This document shows positions 35,817-57,601 of a stretch of 64,000 nt of DNA, piece by piece. Below the pieces are notes generated by a model. It was not told the origin of the DNA. It searched no databases and saw only the letters and a list, made by a program, of their open reading frames with translations. Where the stretch lies: positions 8,842 to 72,841 of the forward strand of contig JAFQBD010000014.1 in NCBI GenBank assembly GCA_017416795.1. The letters are read 5' to 3'. The translations under genes and the position numbers were made by a program. Positions within the stretch are counted from its first letter, which is position 1. Each line of letters begins with the position of its first letter. Source of the DNA: Bacillota bacterium (lineage in GTDB: Bacteria > Bacillota > Clostridia > Peptostreptococcales > Anaerovoracaceae).

Positions 35817-36296
35817 ATGAAATTATACATAAAAGAAAAAGCGATTTCTGTAATGGATAAGTTCTATGTCAGAAATGAAAAAGGTGACAAGAAATATGAG
35901 ATCAGAAGAAAATTCGAGCCTGCAATAGGATTGAAACTGCATATCCTCGATATGGATGGTAATGAACTGGGATACATCAAAGAGAAGAATATAAGCTTAA
36001 GACCTAAATTCCGTATATTCACAGGTGGGGAACATACAGCGACCATAACCAAGAAAGTGGTTTCCATGAGACCTAAATACGAGGTTGAGGAGCTGGGGTG
36101 GAAGATAAAAGGTAACCTGATACAGCGAGATTATAAGATCGTCGGCAAAGAAGGTGAAGTAATGAATATCCACAAAGGGCTCCTGAAGCTGAGCGATACA
36201 TTCGTACTGGAATTCAGCGATAAAAAACATGTAGTTGAAGCCCTTGCCGTAGTAGTTGCCATCGACTACATACTTGATGAAAAGGCAGAAGACTAA
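35817..36296 (+). CDS. LURP-one/scramblase-like (YxjI-type) protein
   Basis: LYIKEKAIS..DKF, W.IKGNL...DY.I, ALAVVVAID pattern. Confidence 0.75.
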   Translation: MKLYIKEKAISVMDKFYVRNEKGDKKYEIRRKFEPAIGLKLHILDMDGNELGYIKEKNISLRPKFRIFTGGEHTATITKKVVSMRPKYEVEELGWKIKGNLIQRDYKIVGKEGEVMNIHKGLLKLSDTFVLEFSDKKHVVEALAVVVAIDYILDEKAED

Positions 36297-36331
36297 GGAA
36301 AAGGTATTACAAGAACAGAAAGGTGATCAAT

Positions 36332-36748
36332 ATGAGATTAGAATACGTAGGAACAGATATAACAGAACTCAGCCTTAGAAAGGACATCCCCGATGACGCA
36401 GAGATAGAACTTCAGACAAATACCAACTATACAGTGTATTTTTCAGAAGACGGCGATTCATGTTACGGTGAATTCAATGTTGAGATAATATCACAGCATG
36501 ATCCTTCCATGTTATCCATCAATTACTGCTCAAAGAGTTATTTCAATATCTACGATGCATACTTTGGTGAAGAAGGAGACATAGAAAGACAGATCCACAT
36601 GGAAGTATTCAACAGGATCTTCCCTATGTGCAATGAAACATTGAGACAGTTCACATCTATGGCAGGCGTACCTAATATCTCGCTTCTCGAGATGAACATG
36701 TCCGACATGGATATCGTTACTGAAGCTGCACCACAGTTCAGCATGTAG
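36332..36748 (+). CDS. SecB-like chaperone (acidic, about 138 aa)
   Basis: Beta-rich N-terminus, then IFPMCNETLRQFTSMAGVPNISL, resembling the SecB 'lfPy.R..i..lt..aG.P.l.l' signature. Confidence 0.55.
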   Translation: MRLEYVGTDITELSLRKDIPDDAEIELQTNTNYTVYFSEDGDSCYGEFNVEIISQHDPSMLSINYCSKSYFNIYDAYFGEEGDIERQIHMEVFNRIFPMCNETLRQFTSMAGVPNISLLEMNMSDMDIVTEAAPQFSM

Positions 36749-36760
36749 AATAAGAAGGTC

Positions 36761-37348
36761 TTATTTATCATATCTGCAGATTATTTCATCTGCGATCTCT
36801 TTTCTTGAAACACAGCGATCCATTGCAGTTTTTTCGATATATCTGTGAGCATCAGGTTCGCTCATATTTTCATGACTTATCAACATCCATTTAGCACGGT
36901 TGACAAGACGGATCTCTTCCATCTTCTGTTCTATGGATGTTGTTTTATTTTCATAACGGCGGAGACGCTCACGAGAACTTATCATCCATGAAAGGGCGCG
37001 CTCCATTATTGTTCTTGAAGTAGGTTTTGGCAGTGTGAAAACACCGTGAGGAGAAACCTTGCTGTAGATCTCATCGTGGATATCGCTCTTGATCAACAGA
37101 AGTACGACTGCATTATTCCTGGAACAAGTATCCACAGCGAATCTTATACCCTGATCATCAGGCAGCGGAGAGTTTATAATGATAAAATCATATGACCTTT
37201 CTGCCAGCGAACGCTTAGCGCAGTTGATGCCGGAAGCAACAGATACTGTATCATAAAGAGACTCGGGAAGCAGTGAGGTCAGTGAAGCAGTAAATGTCTT
37301 AGATGCTGATACTATAAGGATGCTGTAAACACGCTTTTTGAGACTCAT
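36761..37348 (-). CDS. ANTAR-domain antiterminator with a degenerate receiver domain
   Basis: C-terminal RLVNRAKWMLI...MSEPDAHRYIEKTAMD ANTAR motif. The receiver has IVSA for the acidic pocket and IIINSP for the phospho-Asp. Confidence 0.9.
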   Translation of the reverse strand: MSLKKRVYSILIVSASKTFTASLTSLLPESLYDTVSVASGINCAKRSLAERSYDFIIINSPLPDDQGIRFAVDTCSRNNAVVLLLIKSDIHDEIYSKVSPHGVFTLPKPTSRTIMERALSWMISSRERLRRYENKTTSIEQKMEEIRLVNRAKWMLISHENMSEPDAHRYIEKTAMDRCVSRKEIADEIICRYDK

Positions 37349-37369
37349 CTGCAACCCTCCTTTCTTTTG

Positions 37370-38581
37370 TTATCTTTTGCAGTAAATGTCCAGTATATCG
37401 GTAGGTATATGTTTTTTGATAAAATCGCTGTCAGCAGCTGCTCTGCAGGCAGCTTCAAGATCCTGCGGCAGTCTCTTGTACTTGTCCAGTTCTTCGCTTG
37501 GGGCCTTGTAAAGATTCAGGTCGGCAGAAGGCGGAAGTTCCAGCTTGTTCCTTATGCCGTATATGCCTGCATATATCATCAATGCAAAGGCCAGGTAAGG
37601 GTTTGATGAAGGATCGGGCGAGCGCATTTCTGCCCTTCGATATTCTCCTGATGCAGCAGGGATACGAATCAGCTGTGAACGGTTTTCGCCTGACCATGAA
37701 ATGAATCCGGGAGCCTTGTCGCTGCCAAATCGCTTGTAAGATTCCTCGATCGGATTCAGGAAGATAGTCATATCTTCCGTTTTATCAAGGACACCCGCGA
37801 TCATTTGATCCATATGGTCTAAGCCGTCATCTGATTGTACAGAGATATTTATATGGAAGCCGCTTCCCGCACTGTCAGCTAAAGGTTTAGGCCCGAAGTC
37901 TGCATGTAATCCGTTTCTGTGAGCAACAGTCTTGACAATAGTCTGGAATGTCATAGCATTGTCGGCAGCAGTGACAGGGTCTGAATATCTGAAATCTATC
38001 TCGTTTTGTCCGGGACCGACTTCATGGTGAGAACTTTCAGGTTGGATTCCCATCTGCTCCAGAGTGAGGCAAATCTCACGTCTGATATTTTCCCCTTTAT
38101 CATCAGGAGCAATATCCATATAGCCTGCATTATCGTATGGGACCTTAGTAGGCATGCCATTGTCATCAAGCTTAAATAAATAAAATTCCTGTTCGGCTCC
38201 GAAGAAAAACCTGAGTCCTGCCGATCTGGCTTCAGATACAGCCTGTTTGAGAAGACTGCGGGTATCACATTTAAAAGGGGTGCCGTCAGGATATCTGATG
38301 CTGCAGAACATGCGAACGATACGGCCGTGTTCCGGTCTCCATGGAAGGAGCATCAACGTGTCGGCATCAGGATACAGCAGAAGATCTGAACGTGATTCAT
38401 CTCCAAAGCCTTTTATGCCCGATGCATCTATGGCGATCCCATAGTCAAAAGCGCGTGGGAGTTCTTCCGGCATGATGGCAATATTTTTTTGCCTGCCGAA
38501 CACATCACAGAACGCCAGACGGATGAATTTGATATCTTCTTCTTGAACAAATTGAATAACTTCGTGTTTTGAGTATTTCAT
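37370..38581 (-). CDS. Glutamine synthetase-like protein (type I fold, non-canonical)
   Basis: GAEQEFYLF, HHEVGPGQNEID, GSGFH, NRS..IRIP, EMRSPDPSSNPYL. The flap reads DKAP instead of YEAP. Confidence 0.85.
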   Translation of the reverse strand: MKYSKHEVIQFVQEEDIKFIRLAFCDVFGRQKNIAIMPEELPRAFDYGIAIDASGIKGFGDESRSDLLLYPDADTLMLLPWRPEHGRIVRMFCSIRYPDGTPFKCDTRSLLKQAVSEARSAGLRFFFGAEQEFYLFKLDDNGMPTKVPYDNAGYMDIAPDDKGENIRREICLTLEQMGIQPESSHHEVGPGQNEIDFRYSDPVTAADNAMTFQTIVKTVAHRNGLHADFGPKPLADSAGSGFHINISVQSDDGLDHMDQMIAGVLDKTEDMTIFLNPIEESYKRFGSDKAPGFISWSGENRSQLIRIPAASGEYRRAEMRSPDPSSNPYLAFALMIYAGIYGIRNKLELPPSADLNLYKAPSEELDKYKRLPQDLEAACRAAADSDFIKKHIPTDILDIYCKR

Positions 38582-38686
38582 GATCCTACCTTCTTTCTTG
38601 AACCATAAGATGTCATATTATATATCCAGCATTCTGAAAAAATCAACAAATATGTTTGAAAAAACAAATAAAAACAAAATTTATGG

Positions 38687-38777
38687 TTGCAAAATTCAAA
38701 AACCGGGTGTATTATGTTCGAGTAAAGGCAAAGGCGTCTTTAATGTTTATACGTTAAAGGCGCCCTTGTCTTTTTTT
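38687..38777 (+). promoter_or_regulatory. sigmaA promoter plus attenuator leader with an ANTAR-type hairpin
   Basis: TTGCAA (38687), 17 bp, TATTAT (38710). Hairpin AAAGGC-[AAAGGC]-GTCTTT (38724-38741) is alternative to a 20-bp terminator stem (38726-38771) followed by T6. Confidence 0.7.
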
Positions 38778-38779
38778 GA

Positions 38780-41528
<2,749 letters not shown>

Positions 41529-41539
41529 TCGGAGAAAAA

Positions 41540-45671
<4,132 letters not shown>

Positions 45672-45682
45672 GGGATGACGAA

Positions 45683-46777
45683 ATGGAAGGGCTGATTTAT
45701 CTTGAAGATGGCACAGTTTTTAAAGGTCAGGGTTTCGGTGCTCCGGCTACTGCGGTAGGAGAGCTGGTGTTCAATACATCCATGACCGGGTATCAGGAGA
45801 TACTTACGGACCCATCATACAAAGGGCAGATAATCGATATGACATATCCTTTGGTGGGTAATTATGGTATAAGTGAACATGATAACGAATCCGATAAAAT
45901 ACATGCTTTCGGTCTGATAGTGAAAGATCTGTGTGAAACACCGTCAAACAGCATGTGTGTCAAAACTCTTGACCGGTGGCTCGATGAAAATGGTGTGCCG
46001 GGGGTATATGACATAGATACAAGGAAAATCACAAAAATAATAAGAAAAAACGGAACAGTAAAGTGCCTGATAAGTACTGAAGGGATATCCATAAGCGAGG
46101 CCAAGGAGCTATGTGATAAAACGATGCTTAGGAATGATTGGATGAAAGAAGTCTCGGTAAAGACAAAAACTGTAATAATGCCGGAACAGAAAAAAGCGGA
46201 TAAAACTTACCGTGTCGCAGTAATGGATTTCGGTGTTAAAGCCAACATACTGAACAGTTTGAAAAAAAGGGGTTGTGAATTGATATTATATCCATACGGC
46301 ACTGCAGCGGAAGAGATCCTTGCTGATGACCCTGACGGCATACTTCTGACTAATGGTCCGGGAGATCCTGAAGAGGCGACCGAAGCCATAGAAGAAGTCA
46401 AGAAACTGATCCAAAGTGAAATACCTGTCTTCGGCATATGCATGGGACACCAGATCCTCGCGCTGGCCTTTGGAGGGGAGACATATAAATTGAAATATGG
46501 GCACAGAGGGGGAAACCATGGTGTGTACGATAAGGATACAAAAAGATCATATATCACTTCTCAGAATCATGGATATGCAGTAAATCATGAAAGCATCATA
46601 CTTAAAGGGCTGGAAGTGACACATCTCAACTTAAATGATGGTACTGTAGAAGGTATGGCACATAGAGATTTACCTGTTTTCTCTGTCCAATTTCATCCGG
46701 AAGCCTCGCCGGGACCAACAGATACAGCATATCTATTCGATAAGTTTATATCTCTATTGACTTCTGTTCATATTTAA
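45683..46777 (+). CDS. carA: Carbamoyl-phosphate synthase small subunit, copy 1 (catalytic triad intact)
   Basis: FNTSMTGYQE, NGPGDP, GICMGHQ (Cys), FHPEASPGP. Confidence 0.95.
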   Translation: MEGLIYLEDGTVFKGQGFGAPATAVGELVFNTSMTGYQEILTDPSYKGQIIDMTYPLVGNYGISEHDNESDKIHAFGLIVKDLCETPSNSMCVKTLDRWLDENGVPGVYDIDTRKITKIIRKNGTVKCLISTEGISISEAKELCDKTMLRNDWMKEVSVKTKTVIMPEQKKADKTYRVAVMDFGVKANILNSLKKRGCELILYPYGTAAEEILADDPDGILLTNGPGDPEEATEAIEEVKKLIQSEIPVFGICMGHQILALAFGGETYKLKYGHRGGNHGVYDKDTKRSYITSQNHGYAVNHESIILKGLEVTHLNLNDGTVEGMAHRDLPVFSVQFHPEASPGPTDTAYLFDKFISLLTSVHI

Positions 46778-46827
46778 CTAATAATACAAATATGAAAAAC
46801 TACAGATAAAAGGAGCTATATCAGTCG

Positions 46828-49867: not shown

Positions 49868-49930
49868 ATAATAACATCAAAAAATCCGGAGGTTTCTCCG
49901 GATTTTGTTTTGTATATTTATGTTTTTTTA

Positions 49931-52732: not shown

Positions 52733-52811
52733 AATCAAAAGCTAATACTGAAGTACCGTGCGGGATGATTTCCGGGCGGTATTTTTTATACATTTTTCTG
52801 CAAAAATATCC

Positions 52812-52850
52812 ATGCACACTATTGAATAAACATGAATATTGATGTATAAT
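52812..52850 (+). promoter_or_regulatory. carAB promoter overlapped by ARG-box-like sites
   Basis: TTGAAT, 17 bp, TATAAT. TGAAT-AAAC-ATGAA and TGAAT-ATTG-ATGTA are each one mismatch from TGAAT-N4-ATNCA. Confidence 0.5.
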
Positions 52851-52930: not shown

Positions 52931-54055
52931 ATGATCAAGACTACTAAAGCAGCAGAAGGTATGATTTATCTGGAAGACGGCACAGTTTTCAAGGGAAAGA
53001 GCTTCGGAGCAGTCAAGACAGCTGTTGGAGAACTGGTATTCAATACTGTTATGACAGGCTATCAGGAACTGTTGACAGACCCTACTTACAAGGGACAGAT
53101 AATCAATATGACGTATCCTATCATAGGTAATTACGGTATAAGCGATGTGGATAATGAATCGGATAATATTCATGCATTCGGCCTTGTGGTCAAGGATGTA
53201 TGCGATGAACCGTCAAACAGCATGTGCACTAAGACATTAGACCAGTGGATGAAGGAGCATGATGTTCCGGGAGTCGCAGGTGTAGATACGAGACAGATAA
53301 CTAAGAAGATAAGAAATAACGGTACAATAAAATGCCTCATCAGTACAGAAGGTATTTCCATAAGTGAAGCCAAGAAGCTTTGCGCGGAAGCAGAACTCAA
53401 AGGTGACTGGATGAAAGAAACTGCAGTCGCAGAGAAGACGATCCTGGGTCCTACAGCTAAAACTGCCGAAGAACCGCTGGACGTAGCAGTCATAGATTTC
53501 GGTATCAAGCAGCATATCGTAGACTTTCTGAGAGAAAAGAACTGCAAGCTGACTCTCTATCCGTACGGAACAGAGGCTGAAGAAATCATCGCAGACGATC
53601 CGGACGGCATTTTCCTCACCAACGGACCGGGAAATCCTGAAGAGGCCGCAGAAGCCATAGAAGAAGTGAAGACGCTTATAGCTGAGAGCGAACTTCCTAT
53701 GTTCGGTATCGGTCTCGGTCACCAGATACTGACCATAGCACTGGGCGGAAGCACATATAAGCTGAAGTACGGACATAGAGGCGGCAACCACGGCGTATAC
53801 GATAAAGAAACTAAACGCTCATACATAACTTCCCAGAACCACGGATATGCAGTTAACCACGACAGTATCATCCTCAAGGGAATGGAAGTCACACACCTAA
53901 ACCTCAACGACGGAACAGTAGAAGGTATGGAGCACAGAGACTTGCCGATCTTCTCGACACAGTTCCATCCGGAAGCTAAGCATAACGCCAACGACAGCGG
54001 ATATTTATTCGATAAATTTATTTCTATGATGAAGGAGGAAACGAAAAATGCCTAA
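52931..54055 (+). CDS. carA: Carbamoyl-phosphate synthase small subunit, copy 2 (nucleophile Cys replaced by Gly)
   Basis: Close paralog of copy 1 but reads GIGLGHQ (GGT at 53711-53713) and FHPEAKHNA; overlaps the carB start. Confidence 0.92.
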   Translation: MIKTTKAAEGMIYLEDGTVFKGKSFGAVKTAVGELVFNTVMTGYQELLTDPTYKGQIINMTYPIIGNYGISDVDNESDNIHAFGLVVKDVCDEPSNSMCTKTLDQWMKEHDVPGVAGVDTRQITKKIRNNGTIKCLISTEGISISEAKKLCAEAELKGDWMKETAVAEKTILGPTAKTAEEPLDVAVIDFGIKQHIVDFLREKNCKLTLYPYGTEAEEIIADDPDGIFLTNGPGNPEEAAEAIEEVKTLIAESELPMFGIGLGHQILTIALGGSTYKLKYGHRGGNHGVYDKETKRSYITSQNHGYAVNHDSIILKGMEVTHLNLNDGTVEGMEHRDLPIFSTQFHPEAKHNANDSGYLFDKFISMMKEETKNA

Positions 54056-57000
54056 GAAAACTTCGCTGAAAAAAATACTCATAATCGGATCCGGCCCTAT
54101 CGTCATAGGACAGGCGGCAGAATTTGACTATGCCGGAACACAGGCCTGCAAGGCGATCAAAGAAGAAGGTATAGAAACTATCCTGGTAAACAGCAATCCG
54201 GCAACGATAATGACGGACAAAGGGATAGCAGATAAAGTATATATGGAGCCGCTGACAGAAGAGGCTCTCGAAAAGATAATGGAAAAAGAACGCCCTGACG
54301 GTATGCTGGCAGGCTTCGGCGGACAGACAGGCCTCAATCTTGCCATGGAAATGGAAGAAAAGGGCATCCTTGCCAAGTACGGAACTAAACTCCTCGGCGT
54401 AAATAAAGAAAGCATCAAGAAGGCGGAAGACAGAGAAGCCTTCAAGGAACTGATGCAGGAGATAAACGAGCCTATCCCTAGCAGCATCATAGCTACGACT
54501 ATCGAAGAATGTTACGACTTCATCGAAAAAGAAGGCTATCCAGTTATCATCAGACCTGCATATACCCTCGGTGGTACAGGCGGCGGCATCGCAGAAAACA
54601 AGGAAGAACTGGAAGAACTCTGCTACAAGGGTATGGAAAGCAGCGCCATAGGACAGATACTTCTCGAAAAATCCGTAGCCGGCTGGAAAGAGATCGAGTT
54701 CGAGGTCATGCGTGACAGAAGAAACAACTGCATCATCATCTGCAGCATGGAAAACATGGACCCTGTAGGAGTACATACAGGCGACAGTATCGTAGTAGCT
54801 CCTGTACAGACACTGAGAGACGAAGAATATCAGATGCTGAGAGATGCATCTATCAAGATCATCAGAAGTCTCGAGATCGAAGGCGGATGCAATGTACAGT
54901 TCGCTCTTGATCCGGATACAGGAGATTACATAGTTATCGAAGTAAACCCTCGTGTAAGCCGTTCATCAGCCCTCGCTTCAAAAGCTGCAGGCTATCCTAT
55001 AGCTAAGATCTCCGCTAAGATCGCTCTGGGATATACGCTGGATGAGCTTTACAACTACGTTACTCAGACCACAAGTGCATGCTTCGAACCTACTATAGAC
55101 TATATCGTAGTCAAGTTCCCTAAGTGGCCGTTCGACAAGTTCAGGACAGCATCGAGAAAGCTGGGAACTCAGATGAAGGCGACGGGCGAAGTAATGTCCA
55201 TCGACAGAACTTTCGAGAGTGCGCTGCTGAAGGCACTCACATCAATAGAAATCAAGTGTGACGGTCTCCATACTCCGTATGTGACAGGTTTACCAAACGA
55301 CAAGCTGATCGCCAAGCTGAAGGATTGCGACGATGAGAGGGTATTCTGCATAGCGGAAGTTATGAGAAGAGACTTGATGGATGTGGAAGAACTATACTCA
55401 ATCACTAAGATAGACAGATGGTTCTTGAACAAGATCAAGGGCATCATCGATCTGGAAAACACACTTAAGACACAGCCGCTCACTAAAGATCTGGTTTATG
55501 AGGCAGAGTCGAGAGGCTTGACAGATTCAGACATCATCGAACTTTCGGGAGTATCCAGAGATGTCCTTCAGGATATCCGTGTATATAACGACATTTATCC
55601 TGTTTATAAGATGGTAGATACATGCGGCGGTGAATTTGATGCGCTGACACCGTATTACTATTCATGTTATGACGAAGAAGATGAAAGTATCAGAAGCCCT
55701 GAAGAGAAGATCCTCGTTATAGGCTCAGGCCCTATCAGGATCGGTCAGGGTATAGAATTCGACTACTGCTGCGTACAGGGCGTATGGGCTATCAAGGAAC
55801 TGGGATATGAAGCTATCATCATGAACAACAACCCTGAGACAGTGAGCACAGACTTCGACACATCCGACAAGCTGTATTTTGAATCTCTCCACATAGACAA
55901 CGTGATGAACGTCATCAAGAGAGAACGTCCTTACGGAGTCATCCTCCAGTTCGGCGGCCAGACATCGCTGAACCTGGCAGAAAAGCTCAACAGCAGAAGC
56001 ATCAATATTCTGGGAACAGCTTTCGAAGATATAGACCTGGCAGAAGACAGAGAAAAGTTCTGCGAGCTGCTGGCAGACCTTGGCATCGCTGTGCCTGAAG
56101 GCGTAGCGGTGACTACTGAGGAAGAAGCATTCGAAGCAGTGGCAAGACTAGGATATCCGCTGGTGGTACGTCCGTCATACGTTATCGGCGGCAGAGCTAT
56201 GCAGGTAGTATACAGCGACGACGAACTTAAGAGATATCTGAAGGAATCAGTATCCCTGTCCACTGAACATCCTGTACTTATCGACCAGTATATCCAGGGT
56301 AAGGAGATAGAAGTAGATGCCATCGCAGATGGTGAAGACATCCTGATCCCGGGCATAATGGAGCACGTGGAAAGGGCAGGGGTCCACTCCGGAGACAGTA
56401 TTTCCGTATATCCGAATTACTCTCTCTCAGAAGAAGTGGAAAACACACTCCTCGAGTATACGGAAAAGATCGCAAAGGCTCTCAATACAGTAGGACTCAT
56501 CAATATCCAATATGCATATGACGGTGAGAAGATCTACGTTATCGAAGCTAACCCTAGAGCATCACGTACAGTTCCTATCCTCAGCAAGATCACTAGAGTT
56601 CCTATGGTCAAGCTGGCAGTGGCAGCTATGCTGGGACATAAGCTTAAGGACAGTGAATACGGAACAGGACTGTATAAGAAAACTAAGGAATATGCAGTCA
56701 AAGTGCCTGTATTCTCCAGCGCCAAGCTGACTGATATGGACATCGCACTGGGACCTGAAATGAAGTCTACGGGAGAAGTCCTCGGCATAGATGAAGATCT
56801 TGATAAGGCGCTTTATAAGGGCTTCCTCGGTGCAGGCATGGATATTCCTGACGGTGGCAATATCTTCGTTACACTCAGATCTACAGAGCAGACAGAGTAT
56901 ACGGCAGACATCCTCAAGGATTACTGCGATAACGGATTCAAACTCTACGCCACAGATGATACTATCAACTTCATCAAGGAGTATGGCATGGATGCTGAAC

Positions 57001-57248
57001 TGATGGACTATGTGACTGCCCAGGAATGGATCATGGATCACGATGAAGACAGTGACAAGAGCATATCACTGGTCATCAACGTTCCGACAGTTGCCAACAC
57101 GAAGAAGAACGACAGCTTCCCTGTAAGAAGAAAGGCTATAGAGTGGGGTGTTCCTGTAATGACTTGTATGGATACTGCCAGAGTATTCCTCAAGGCTATC
57201 AAACAGCACCAGAAGGGAATAGCGCTGACATATAATTCGCTGGACTAA
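54048..57248 (+). CDS. carB: Carbamoyl-phosphate synthase large subunit
   Basis: IGSGPIVIGQAAEFDY, two ATP-grasp halves, C-terminal MGS-like domain; 1066 aa. Confidence 0.98.
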   Translation: MPKKTSLKKILIIGSGPIVIGQAAEFDYAGTQACKAIKEEGIETILVNSNPATIMTDKGIADKVYMEPLTEEALEKIMEKERPDGMLAGFGGQTGLNLAMEMEEKGILAKYGTKLLGVNKESIKKAEDREAFKELMQEINEPIPSSIIATTIEECYDFIEKEGYPVIIRPAYTLGGTGGGIAENKEELEELCYKGMESSAIGQILLEKSVAGWKEIEFEVMRDRRNNCIIICSMENMDPVGVHTGDSIVVAPVQTLRDEEYQMLRDASIKIIRSLEIEGGCNVQFALDPDTGDYIVIEVNPRVSRSSALASKAAGYPIAKISAKIALGYTLDELYNYVTQTTSACFEPTIDYIVVKFPKWPFDKFRTASRKLGTQMKATGEVMSIDRTFESALLKALTSIEIKCDGLHTPYVTGLPNDKLIAKLKDCDDERVFCIAEVMRRDLMDVEELYSITKIDRWFLNKIKGIIDLENTLKTQPLTKDLVYEAESRGLTDSDIIELSGVSRDVLQDIRVYNDIYPVYKMVDTCGGEFDALTPYYYSCYDEEDESIRSPEEKILVIGSGPIRIGQGIEFDYCCVQGVWAIKELGYEAIIMNNNPETVSTDFDTSDKLYFESLHIDNVMNVIKRERPYGVILQFGGQTSLNLAEKLNSRSINILGTAFEDIDLAEDREKFCELLADLGIAVPEGVAVTTEEEAFEAVARLGYPLVVRPSYVIGGRAMQVVYSDDELKRYLKESVSLSTEHPVLIDQYIQGKEIEVDAIADGEDILIPGIMEHVERAGVHSGDSISVYPNYSLSEEVENTLLEYTEKIAKALNTVGLINIQYAYDGEKIYVIEANPRASRTVPILSKITRVPMVKLAVAAMLGHKLKDSEYGTGLYKKTKEYAVKVPVFSSAKLTDMDIALGPEMKSTGEVLGIDEDLDKALYKGFLGAGMDIPDGGNIFVTLRSTEQTEYTADILKDYCDNGFKLYATDDTINFIKEYGMDAELMDYVTAQEWIMDHDEDSDKSISLVINVPTVANTKKNDSFPVRRKAIEWGVPVMTCMDTARVFLKAIKQHQKGIALTYNSLD

Positions 57249-57492: not shown

Positions 57493-57601
57493 CACGACTG
57501 CATATATAATATCTATATAATAAAAACAGCGAGATATCATGTGATATCTCGCTTTCTTTTTTATGAGGTCAATGCTATTTAGTTCAATGATCGCCGGCAG
57601 A

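Follow-up and report, generated by a model that had tools for sequence, protein, structure and literature searches.

Results

The small subunit encoded with carB lacks the glutaminase nucleophile

We analyzed a 64,000-nucleotide stretch of contig JAFQBD010000014.1 (hereafter the window) from an Anaerovoracaceae bacterium whose genome assembly is 1.94 Mb in size and 99.96% complete. The window contains two genes that encode a carbamoyl phosphate synthetase (CPS) small subunit, here called carA1 and carA2, and one gene, carB, for the large subunit. carA2 lies directly upstream of carB, and the two genes overlap by 8 nt. The features of this locus that matter most are the following.

52931..54055, + strand: carA2, small subunit of CPS, class I amidotransferase type (domain and profile matches; alignment to E. 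coli CarA)
53084..53086, + strand: Thr52, where E. coli CarA has Ser47 (Ser in 57/57 live relatives; Thr in 8/8 sequences of the Gly clade described below)
53711..53713, + strand: GGT, coding for Gly261, where class I amidotransferases have their nucleophile, E. coli Cys269 (alignment, translation)
53978..53992, + strand: loop K350-H-N-A-N354, in place of E. coli Ser357-Pro358-Gly359-Pro360-His361, in the ammonia-tunnel wall at the subunit interface (alignment)
54048..57248, + strand: carB, the sole large-subunit gene of the genome, 1066 aa (TIGR01369, 1516 bits)

CarA2 (374 aa) counts as a CarA small subunit by its TIGR01368 score of 456.6 bits, against a curated cut-off of 307, and has both expected domains (PF00988, CPSase_sm_chain, 8.4e-53; PF00117, class I glutamine amidotransferase or GATase, 2e-50). 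Its fold is fixed by 45% identity to the solved E. coli CarA. When CarA2 is aligned by profile with the structures of E. coli CarA, its Gly261 falls on Cys269, and His353, Glu355 and Gly293 (E. coli numbering) are all present. An original prediction, made by a model from the letters of the window, had described this carB-overlapping CarA as reading GIGLGHQ at the nucleophile and KHNA in place of SPGP; translation and alignment give the same result, the second motif being FHPEAKHNAND from residue 345. Glutamine hydrolysis requires Cys269 and His353 (review PMC6245113). In the glutamine pocket, Gln273, Asn311-His312-Gly313, His353 and Glu355 are present, and Cys269 and Ser47 are changed. We looked in CarA2 for a cysteine that could substitute for Cys269 and found no new one, as every CarA2 cysteine has a counterpart in CarA1, to which CarA2 is 73% identical. 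The triad of glutamine-hydrolysing CPS (EC 6.3.5.5), Cys269-His353-Glu355, is complete in CarA1 and broken by glycine at 269 in CarA2.

The genome contains exactly one carB and two carA genes. A search of the whole genome for a second carB found none; the next match to carB is a 1153-aa ATP-grasp protein with a weak 26% identity. The two large-subunit genes of a duplicated CPS (one for arginine, one for pyrimidines) are thus not present, and neither is a second carB that could partner CarA1, the finding that would have undone the original prediction at this point.

The glycine is shared by several species and CarA2 is under purifying selection

Metagenomes from at least 11 studies of animal gut and faeces contain this stretch. 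In contigs from four independent metagenome studies, positions 53711 and 53712 are unchanged, and the variants near the Gly codon are synonymous only, GGT>GGG at 53713 and one at 53707 in the preceding glycine codon. The closest protein-database clusters (82–96% identical, plus one at 76%) all have Gly, and more distant CarA clusters mostly have Cys, with P0014, P0049 and P0067 as exceptions. Because the glycine recurs in independent studies and in several species, a sequencing or assembly error, or a mutation confined to a single genome, can be ruled out with negligible doubt; the TGT or TGC codon at 53711 that such an origin predicts in reads or close relatives was not found. In a tree of 65 CarA sequences, the Gly-bearing proteins form a clade of eight representatives, drawn from our genome (G000), genomes G016 and G067, metagenome contig L074, and clusters P0004, P0007–P0009 and P0011. 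This Gly clade has 99% support in the Shimodaira-Hasegawa-like approximate likelihood ratio test (SH-aLRT), is nested among carB-linked CarAs and adjoins a Cys-bearing sister, P0010. The Cys-to-Gly change is therefore conserved among carB-adjacent orthologs.

We compared nonsynonymous with synonymous substitution rates (dN/dS) in the closer pairs of Gly-CarA2 species. The estimates were limited to these pairs because dS is saturated (negative Nei-Gojobori, NG86, values) for G000–G016 and for all pairs with G008, a genome described below.

G000 vs G067: CarA2 dN/dS 0.034 (dN 0.037, dS 1.10); CarB dN/dS 0.030
G000 vs L074 species: CarA2 dN/dS 0.053; CarB dN/dS 0.030
L074 species vs G067: CarA2 dN/dS 0.048; CarB dN/dS 0.022
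G067 vs G016: CarA2 dN/dS 0.062; CarB dN/dS 0.025

Thus, CarA2 is under purifying selection and is not decaying. Its dN/dS of 0.034–0.062, a quantity that the original prediction had asked for, is close to that of CarB and of live CarAs, whose pairs within the genus give 0.02–0.08. The constraint extends over both domains, with 0.025–0.045 in the N-terminal domain and 0.018–0.052 in the dead GATase domain. A glutaminase module retained under selection after loss of its nucleophile is one mark of an ammonia-type CPS (EC 6.3.4.16), and CarA2 bears it. The ratio of amino-acid change in CarA to that in CarB is 2.5–3.65 in dead pairs and has a median of 1.64 (range 1.09–2.63) in live pairs; this raised ratio fits local relaxation rather than decay.

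In an alignment of 51 live carB-linked CarAs, 230 columns reach at least 90% conservation, and members of the Gly clade retain 206–217 of them. Seven of the 230 columns are changed in at least 7/8 Gly-clade sequences: Gly19, Ile42, Ser47Thr, Arg212, Cys269Gly, Ala276Thr and Ser357Lys (E. coli numbering). Gly19 is the consensus of the genus, at a position where E. coli has Ala. Five of the others (Ile42, Ser47Thr, Cys269Gly, Ala276Thr and Ser357Lys) cluster at the glutaminase site and tunnel. In the E. coli structures, Ser47 and the 35–47 loop form the cap over the glutamine site, residue 276 lies on the helix that follows the nucleophile elbow, and residues 357–361 form the lining where the ammonia tunnel begins, at the interface of the subunits. 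Ser357Lys is found throughout the Gly clade, and Pro358 turns variable. As for the large subunit, the CarBs of three Gly-CarA2 genomes have ten common substitutions at genus-conserved positions, one of which, Thr253Val, falls on the strand bearing the E. coli tunnel-gate residue Ala251; the set is not used as evidence here.

Triad loss recurs, and a second carA accompanies it in some genomes

We surveyed 77 species genomes of the genus and found carA in 40. The remaining 37, nearly closed assemblies among them, have no carA, which makes CPS dispensable in much of the genus. The order dsdA-thioesterase-carA-carB is conserved throughout. Motifs read in the recovered loci show that the carB-linked CarA has both Cys and His in 36/40 genomes; the four without are G000, G067, G016 and G008. 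The G067 protein reads GIGLGHQ and KHGA, and the CarB beside it is 97% identical to that of our genome. The motifs of G016 CarA are GIGMGHQ and KSGA, and G008 CarA has GVGLGHQ together with His353 replaced by Leu. A third species, represented by the 111-kb metagenome contig L074, repeats the whole layout of the window (ANTAR/GS-like pair, purA...asnA-carA1, lysE-ddh-MATE, EamA, dsdA-thioesterase-carA2-carB, where GS is glutamine synthetase), and its CarA2 reads FAVGMGHQ and KQGAG.

A second carA was found only in G000 and G016 among the 40 carA-bearing genomes. It is therefore present in 2/4 genomes with a dead carB-linked copy and in 0/36 others (Fisher p = 0.008), although the cases share ancestry and are closer to one event. 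A search of the G008 assembly (91% complete) for a second carA found none.

Changes of state in the triad occurred at least five times on the 65-sequence tree. Within the genus, G008 (locus L015), P0014, P0049 and P0067 lost triad residues independently of the Gly clade. In P0014 (locus L076) and P0049, Cys is replaced by Ser and His353 by Val or Ile, in the same dsdA-thioesterase-carA-carB context, and in P0067 His353 is replaced by Tyr. Genome G028 (locus L025), from another family of the same order and 100% complete, has as its only carB-linked CarA a protein with GVCLGYQ (GYQ for GHQ) and QFRPE (His353 to Arg). This G028 protein may be an impaired glutaminase subunit; it contains one in-frame TAG in the search table. 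Separately, two members of the genus, G045 and G059 (loci L059 and L060), hold divergent carAB genes, 46–50% identical, adjoining pyrG, and the visible part of the G059 pyrG is 95% identical to the pyrG of the window.

An intact carA paralog ends a separate operon

The second small-subunit gene of the window, carA1, belongs to a module with the following parts.

36297..46826, strand not applicable: 10.5-kb module of the ANTAR/GS-like pair and the purA...carA1 operon, which sister species G067 lacks at this position
36761..37354, - strand: ANTAR protein with a degenerate receiver domain, divergent from the purA run
37370..38581, - strand: GS-like protein, forming a divergent pair with the ANTAR gene
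38733..38764, + strand: leader terminator hairpin upstream of purA, kept in L074 and G016
38792..45671, + strand: purA-purB-guaA-pyrG-asnA, ahead of carA1 in a tightly packed co-directional run (same order in G016, locus L063, and in contig L074)
45683..46777, + strand: carA1, canonical small subunit with Cys253, His, Glu and SPGP intact and no adjoining carB (translation, TIGR01368)

CarA1 (364 aa) scores 502 bits against TIGR01368, whose cut-off is 307. Its motifs are GICMGHQ and FHPEASPGPTD, and Cys253 is encoded by TGC at 46439–46441. Translation and the gene map therefore agree with the original prediction of a paralog with GICMGHQ, FHPEASPGP and no adjacent carB. The gene has asnA, and not a large-subunit gene, as its close neighbour upstream, and it is the sixth gene of the run purA-purB-guaA-pyrG-asnA-carA1 (38792–46777). 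That the intact CarA sits in a separate transcription unit likewise held up, with the ANTAR protein, the GS-like gene and the leader terminator beside it; from these three elements, the carA1 operon looks nitrogen-regulated. The second carA of G016 also ends such a run, with the GS-like gene upstream of purA, and the ANTAR and GS-like pair is found in L074 as well. In a fourth lineage, carA1 follows pyrG with no asnA between and no carB after. The GS-like protein scores 338.7 bits, below the curated GlnA cut-off of 429.

Of the 230 columns conserved among live carB-linked CarAs, CarA1 keeps 221 and members of its clade keep 217–221 (94–96%). With this retention and a single clade-specific change, Phe237Leu, CarA1 looks like a working partner of CarB. 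Its dN/dS is 0.079. The maximum likelihood tree places CarA1 at the base of the CarAs of the genus, and the approximately unbiased (AU) test does not reject a grouping of CarA1 with the Gly clade (p = 0.19), so that CarA1 may have arisen either by horizontal transfer or by duplication within the lineage.

The module carries the only purA, purB, pyrG and asnA of our genome. PyrG and GuaA have amidotransferase domains of their own, and AsnA uses free ammonia. In G067, a LOR-like gene (window 35817–36296) directly abuts lysE, so that the segment from about 36297 to 46826 is missing from an intact contig. We searched the G067 assembly (97% complete) for carA1, asnA and pyrG and found none.

Neighbouring genes, habitat and expression

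Upstream of carA2 lie dsdA, encoding D-serine ammonia-lyase, and a hotdog thioesterase gene. Possible transcription signals around carA2 and carB are these.

about 52755-52790, + strand: hairpin and T-run after the thioesterase gene, preceding the promoter-like site of carA2
52822..52850, + strand: promoter-like site TTGAAT-17-TATAAT before carA2 (consensus match only)
57528..57553, + strand: terminator-like strong hairpin 3' of carB

On the other side of the window, carA1 is followed by lysE, ddh (meso-diaminopimelate dehydrogenase) and a MATE gene, and then by a strong terminator (49881–49906).

By the names given to its homologues, the organism belongs with Anaerovoracaceae-like Bacillota of animal guts. 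It ferments amino acids there, has an arginine deiminase pathway as well as D-serine ammonia-lyase, and lives in an ammonia-rich habitat. Our genome encodes an arginine deiminase cluster (ornithine carbamoyltransferase [OTC], arcA, arcC, OTC) and an aspartate carbamoyltransferase (pyrB); therefore, there are enzymes that consume carbamoyl phosphate, and much ammonia is formed. In this cluster (locus L072, contig C8 1–5400), the two ornithine carbamoyltransferase genes flank arcA and arcC. The genome has only two genes of the GS family, the GS-like gene of the module and a type III-like GS, and lacks the 488-aa GS of G067 and G016.

In two studies, RNA-derived gut assemblies include contigs that match the window over both carA1 and carA2-carB with at least 97% identity. 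Thus, both carA genes are probably transcribed in vivo, with DNA carry-over as a possible source of these contigs. In three RNA-derived runs, contig depth over asnA-carA1 equals or exceeds that over carA2, although contig depth reflects expression only poorly. In one RNA-derived contig (run X28), window position 45285 is joined to 51062, so that the end of asnA, carA1, lysE, ddh, the MATE gene and EamA are skipped; this contig represents a variant strain or else a chimera made during assembly.

Discussion

A possible exchange of small subunits on one CarB

We favour, with moderate confidence and from sequence comparisons, the explanation that CarA2, a pseudo-glutaminase subunit, forms an ammonia-dependent CPS with CarB and that CarA1 is an optional, glutamine-using subunit of the same CarB. 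Because its nucleophile thiol is lost, CarA2 would be unable to hydrolyse glutamine. It would be kept as the small subunit, co-translated and assembled with CarB, and its role as a pseudo-enzyme may lie in assembly, stability or allosteric coupling. Nucleophile loss and habitat together suggest that CarA2-CarB would make carbamoyl phosphate from free ammonia. The carA1 operon, a set of amination enzymes with carA1 as its last biosynthetic gene, would be controlled by the ANTAR/GS-like nitrogen module. When this operon is switched on, CarA1 would compete for newly made CarB and yield a glutamine-dependent CPS. That CarA2 is glutaminase-dead yet functional is well supported; the use of ammonia, the pairing of CarA1 with CarB and control by nitrogen status we infer. 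The pairing, at times when the carA1 operon is expressed, is most likely, given the sequence conservation of CarA1 and the lack of any other possible large subunit.

The original prediction went further and proposed a nitrogen-source switch, one CarB alternating between the two small subunits. The components of that proposal stand (a dead, conserved, carB-linked CarA; a single carB; a separate unit that looks nitrogen-regulated), and a switch by subunit exchange is plausible on sequence grounds. Strict alternation fares less well, and several observations weigh against it or against the wider explanation. G067 keeps Gly-CarA2 and CarB without the carA1 module, which means that the dead pair can probably stand alone, and the Cys- and His-less CarA of G008 also persists with no second carA. 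The dead subunit therefore probably works without the paralog, and its persistence does not depend on a switch by subunit exchange. Both genomes are metagenome-assembled (97% and 91% complete), making the absence of carA1 likely, not proven. The co-occurrence of carA1 and carA2 in the same RNA-derived assemblies argues that both complexes are present together, and against an on/off switch. As carA2 overlaps carB, CarA2 is expected to join CarB co-translationally, making access harder for CarA1. Finally, an Rfam scan of 40–60 kb of the window (E <= 1) gave no match to a known leader or other regulatory RNA family around either operon, PyrR sites and T-boxes included.

If CarA2-CarB were instead the sole CPS, using ammonia only, CarA1 would not bind CarB at all and would act as a free glutaminase or as an ammonia feeder of an enzyme of its operon, such as AsnA or PyrG. 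The position of carA1, always at the end of a pyrG(-asnA) operon and never beside carB, fits this idea, as do the use of free ammonia by AsnA and the carA2-carB overlap, which points to CarA2 as the partner of CarB. However, CarA1 keeps the entire CarB-specific N-terminal domain along with 94–96% of the conserved carB-linked positions, its clade shows one specific change, its dN/dS is 0.08, and PyrG and GuaA bring their own amidotransferase domains. The lineage with pyrG-carA1 and no intervening asnA weakens the notion of a glutaminase for AsnA, and E. coli CarA in isolation hydrolyses glutamine very poorly, which counts against a free glutaminase. We consider this explanation unlikely. We also speculate, at somewhat longer odds, that CarA2 might be more than a passive scaffold: its pocket, kept apart from Cys269 and Ser47 at a dN/dS of about 0.02–0.05, might bind glutamine without splitting it and tune CarB allosterically while CarA1, made from the ANTAR-controlled operon, competes for the same subunit. 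A single enzyme would then sense nitrogen status in two ways, through subunit composition and through a pseudo-enzyme sensor.

Less likely still, CarA1 may by now be the catalytic partner of CarB, with CarA2 kept for another purpose, as a stabiliser or chaperone of nascent CarB or as a non-hydrolysing glutamine sensor. Retention of the glutamine pocket apart from Cys269 and Ser47, under strong constraint, would suit a sensor, and the carA1 contig depth in the three RNA-derived assemblies is at least that of carA2. Yet a dead CarA accompanies CarB without a second carA in G067 and G008, and the loss of His353 as well in other lineages argues against preserved glutamine binding in general. It is very improbable that CarA2 became redundant once CarA1 was gained and has begun to decay, its frame kept only through translational coupling to carB. 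The modest acceleration of the CarA/CarB change ratio in dead pairs is what such decay might produce, but CarA2 dN/dS is 0.03–0.06 over both domains, CarA2 sequences diverged to 76–96% identity contain no stops or frameshifts, the variants at and beside the Gly codon are synonymous, and dead CarAs persist in genomes free of the paralog. What remains best able to accommodate these observations, in our estimate, is an ammonia-dependent CarA2-CarB to which CarA1 may be added.

Relation to known carbamoyl phosphate synthetases

By analogy, CarA2-CarB is most likely a bacterial counterpart, in two polypeptides, of vertebrate CPS I (human CPS1, PDB 5DOT/5DOU; EC 6.3.4.16), an ammonia-using CPS that structurally retains a CarA-like glutaminase module without the catalytic cysteine. 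Among the structural relatives of CarA2, CPS1 also ranks second, behind E. coli CarA. In human CPS1 the catalytic cysteine is replaced, with Ser294 at its position (PMC4655335), and the ammonia dependence of CPS I arose via changes in the glutaminase part (PMC8121099; PMC4655335). The two systems differ in several respects. CPS1 is one fused chain of 1500 residues that needs N-acetylglutamate, whereas CarA2 and CarB are encoded by two separate genes; the CPS1 tunnel is blocked (Gln318 for E. coli Gly293), whereas CarA2 keeps Gly293; and the nucleophile position holds Ser in CPS1 and Gly in CarA2. In addition, our genome also encodes an intact small subunit.

Similar to E. coli CarAB (PDB 1JDB; C269S, 1C30), the pair described here has the same fold and domain order, a carA-carB gene pair, His353/Glu355 and the tunnel-gate region. 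The E. coli C269G and C269S enzymes, in work attributed to Rubino and colleagues (in 1986) and Mullins and colleagues (in 1991), reportedly lose glutamine use and keep ammonia-dependent synthesis. Those changes of Cys269 were engineered, whereas the change here is natural, selected and accompanied by Ser47Thr, Ala276Thr and a rebuilt 357–361 loop. Blocking the E. coli ammonia tunnel, as described in papers citing Huang and Raushel 2000, abolished glutamine use and left ammonia use intact, and isolated bacterial CarB can use ammonium (PMC8121099).

The closest analogue in print is Bacteroides thetaiotaomicron, like our organism a gut anaerobe, which has two routes to carbamoyl phosphate: an orphan CarB2 at high ammonium and otherwise CarAB, encoded in a locus induced by low ammonium (Liu et al. 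2021, PMC8121099). The choice by ammonium is established for B. thetaiotaomicron and inferred here. An ammonium-type meso-diaminopimelate dehydrogenase is part of the B. thetaiotaomicron logic (PMC8121099), and in our window ddh lies two genes after carA1. In contrast to B. thetaiotaomicron, which duplicates the large subunit and has no small subunit in its ammonium form, our genome has a single large subunit and a duplicated small subunit, one copy of which is dead. CarB is not of the orphan type, as a full-length, constrained small subunit is encoded with it. Bacillus and Lactobacillus also have more than one carA under separate regulation (arginine-specific CarAB, pyrimidine-specific PyrAA/PyrAB), but there both enzymes are complete and glutamine-dependent and have separate large subunits, and here there is one carB.

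According to a 2021 statement, all examined eubacterial CPSs are glutamine-dependent, and prokaryotic ammonium-dependent CPSs are restricted to Archaea (PMC8121099). What the locus contributes is a bacterial CPS, natural and under selection, with a small subunit predicted to be incapable of glutamine hydrolysis. A second new point, as read from the genes, would be the combination of one large subunit with two small ones, dead and live, the live one in an apparently nitrogen-controlled operon. In the literature searched, we came across no account of one CarB accompanied by both a dead and a live CarA; a 'carA2' of Francisella (PMC13548406) was considered as a precedent for the paralogs and rejected, since the name refers to transposon alleles. 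If the CarA1-CarB pairing is true, the arrangement would be a compact nitrogen-donor switch that avoids duplicating the 3.2-kb carB, and a clean natural system for the roles of the small subunit in CarB beyond ammonia delivery. It also raises an issue of annotation, as such genes are all automatically named 'glutamine-hydrolyzing'.

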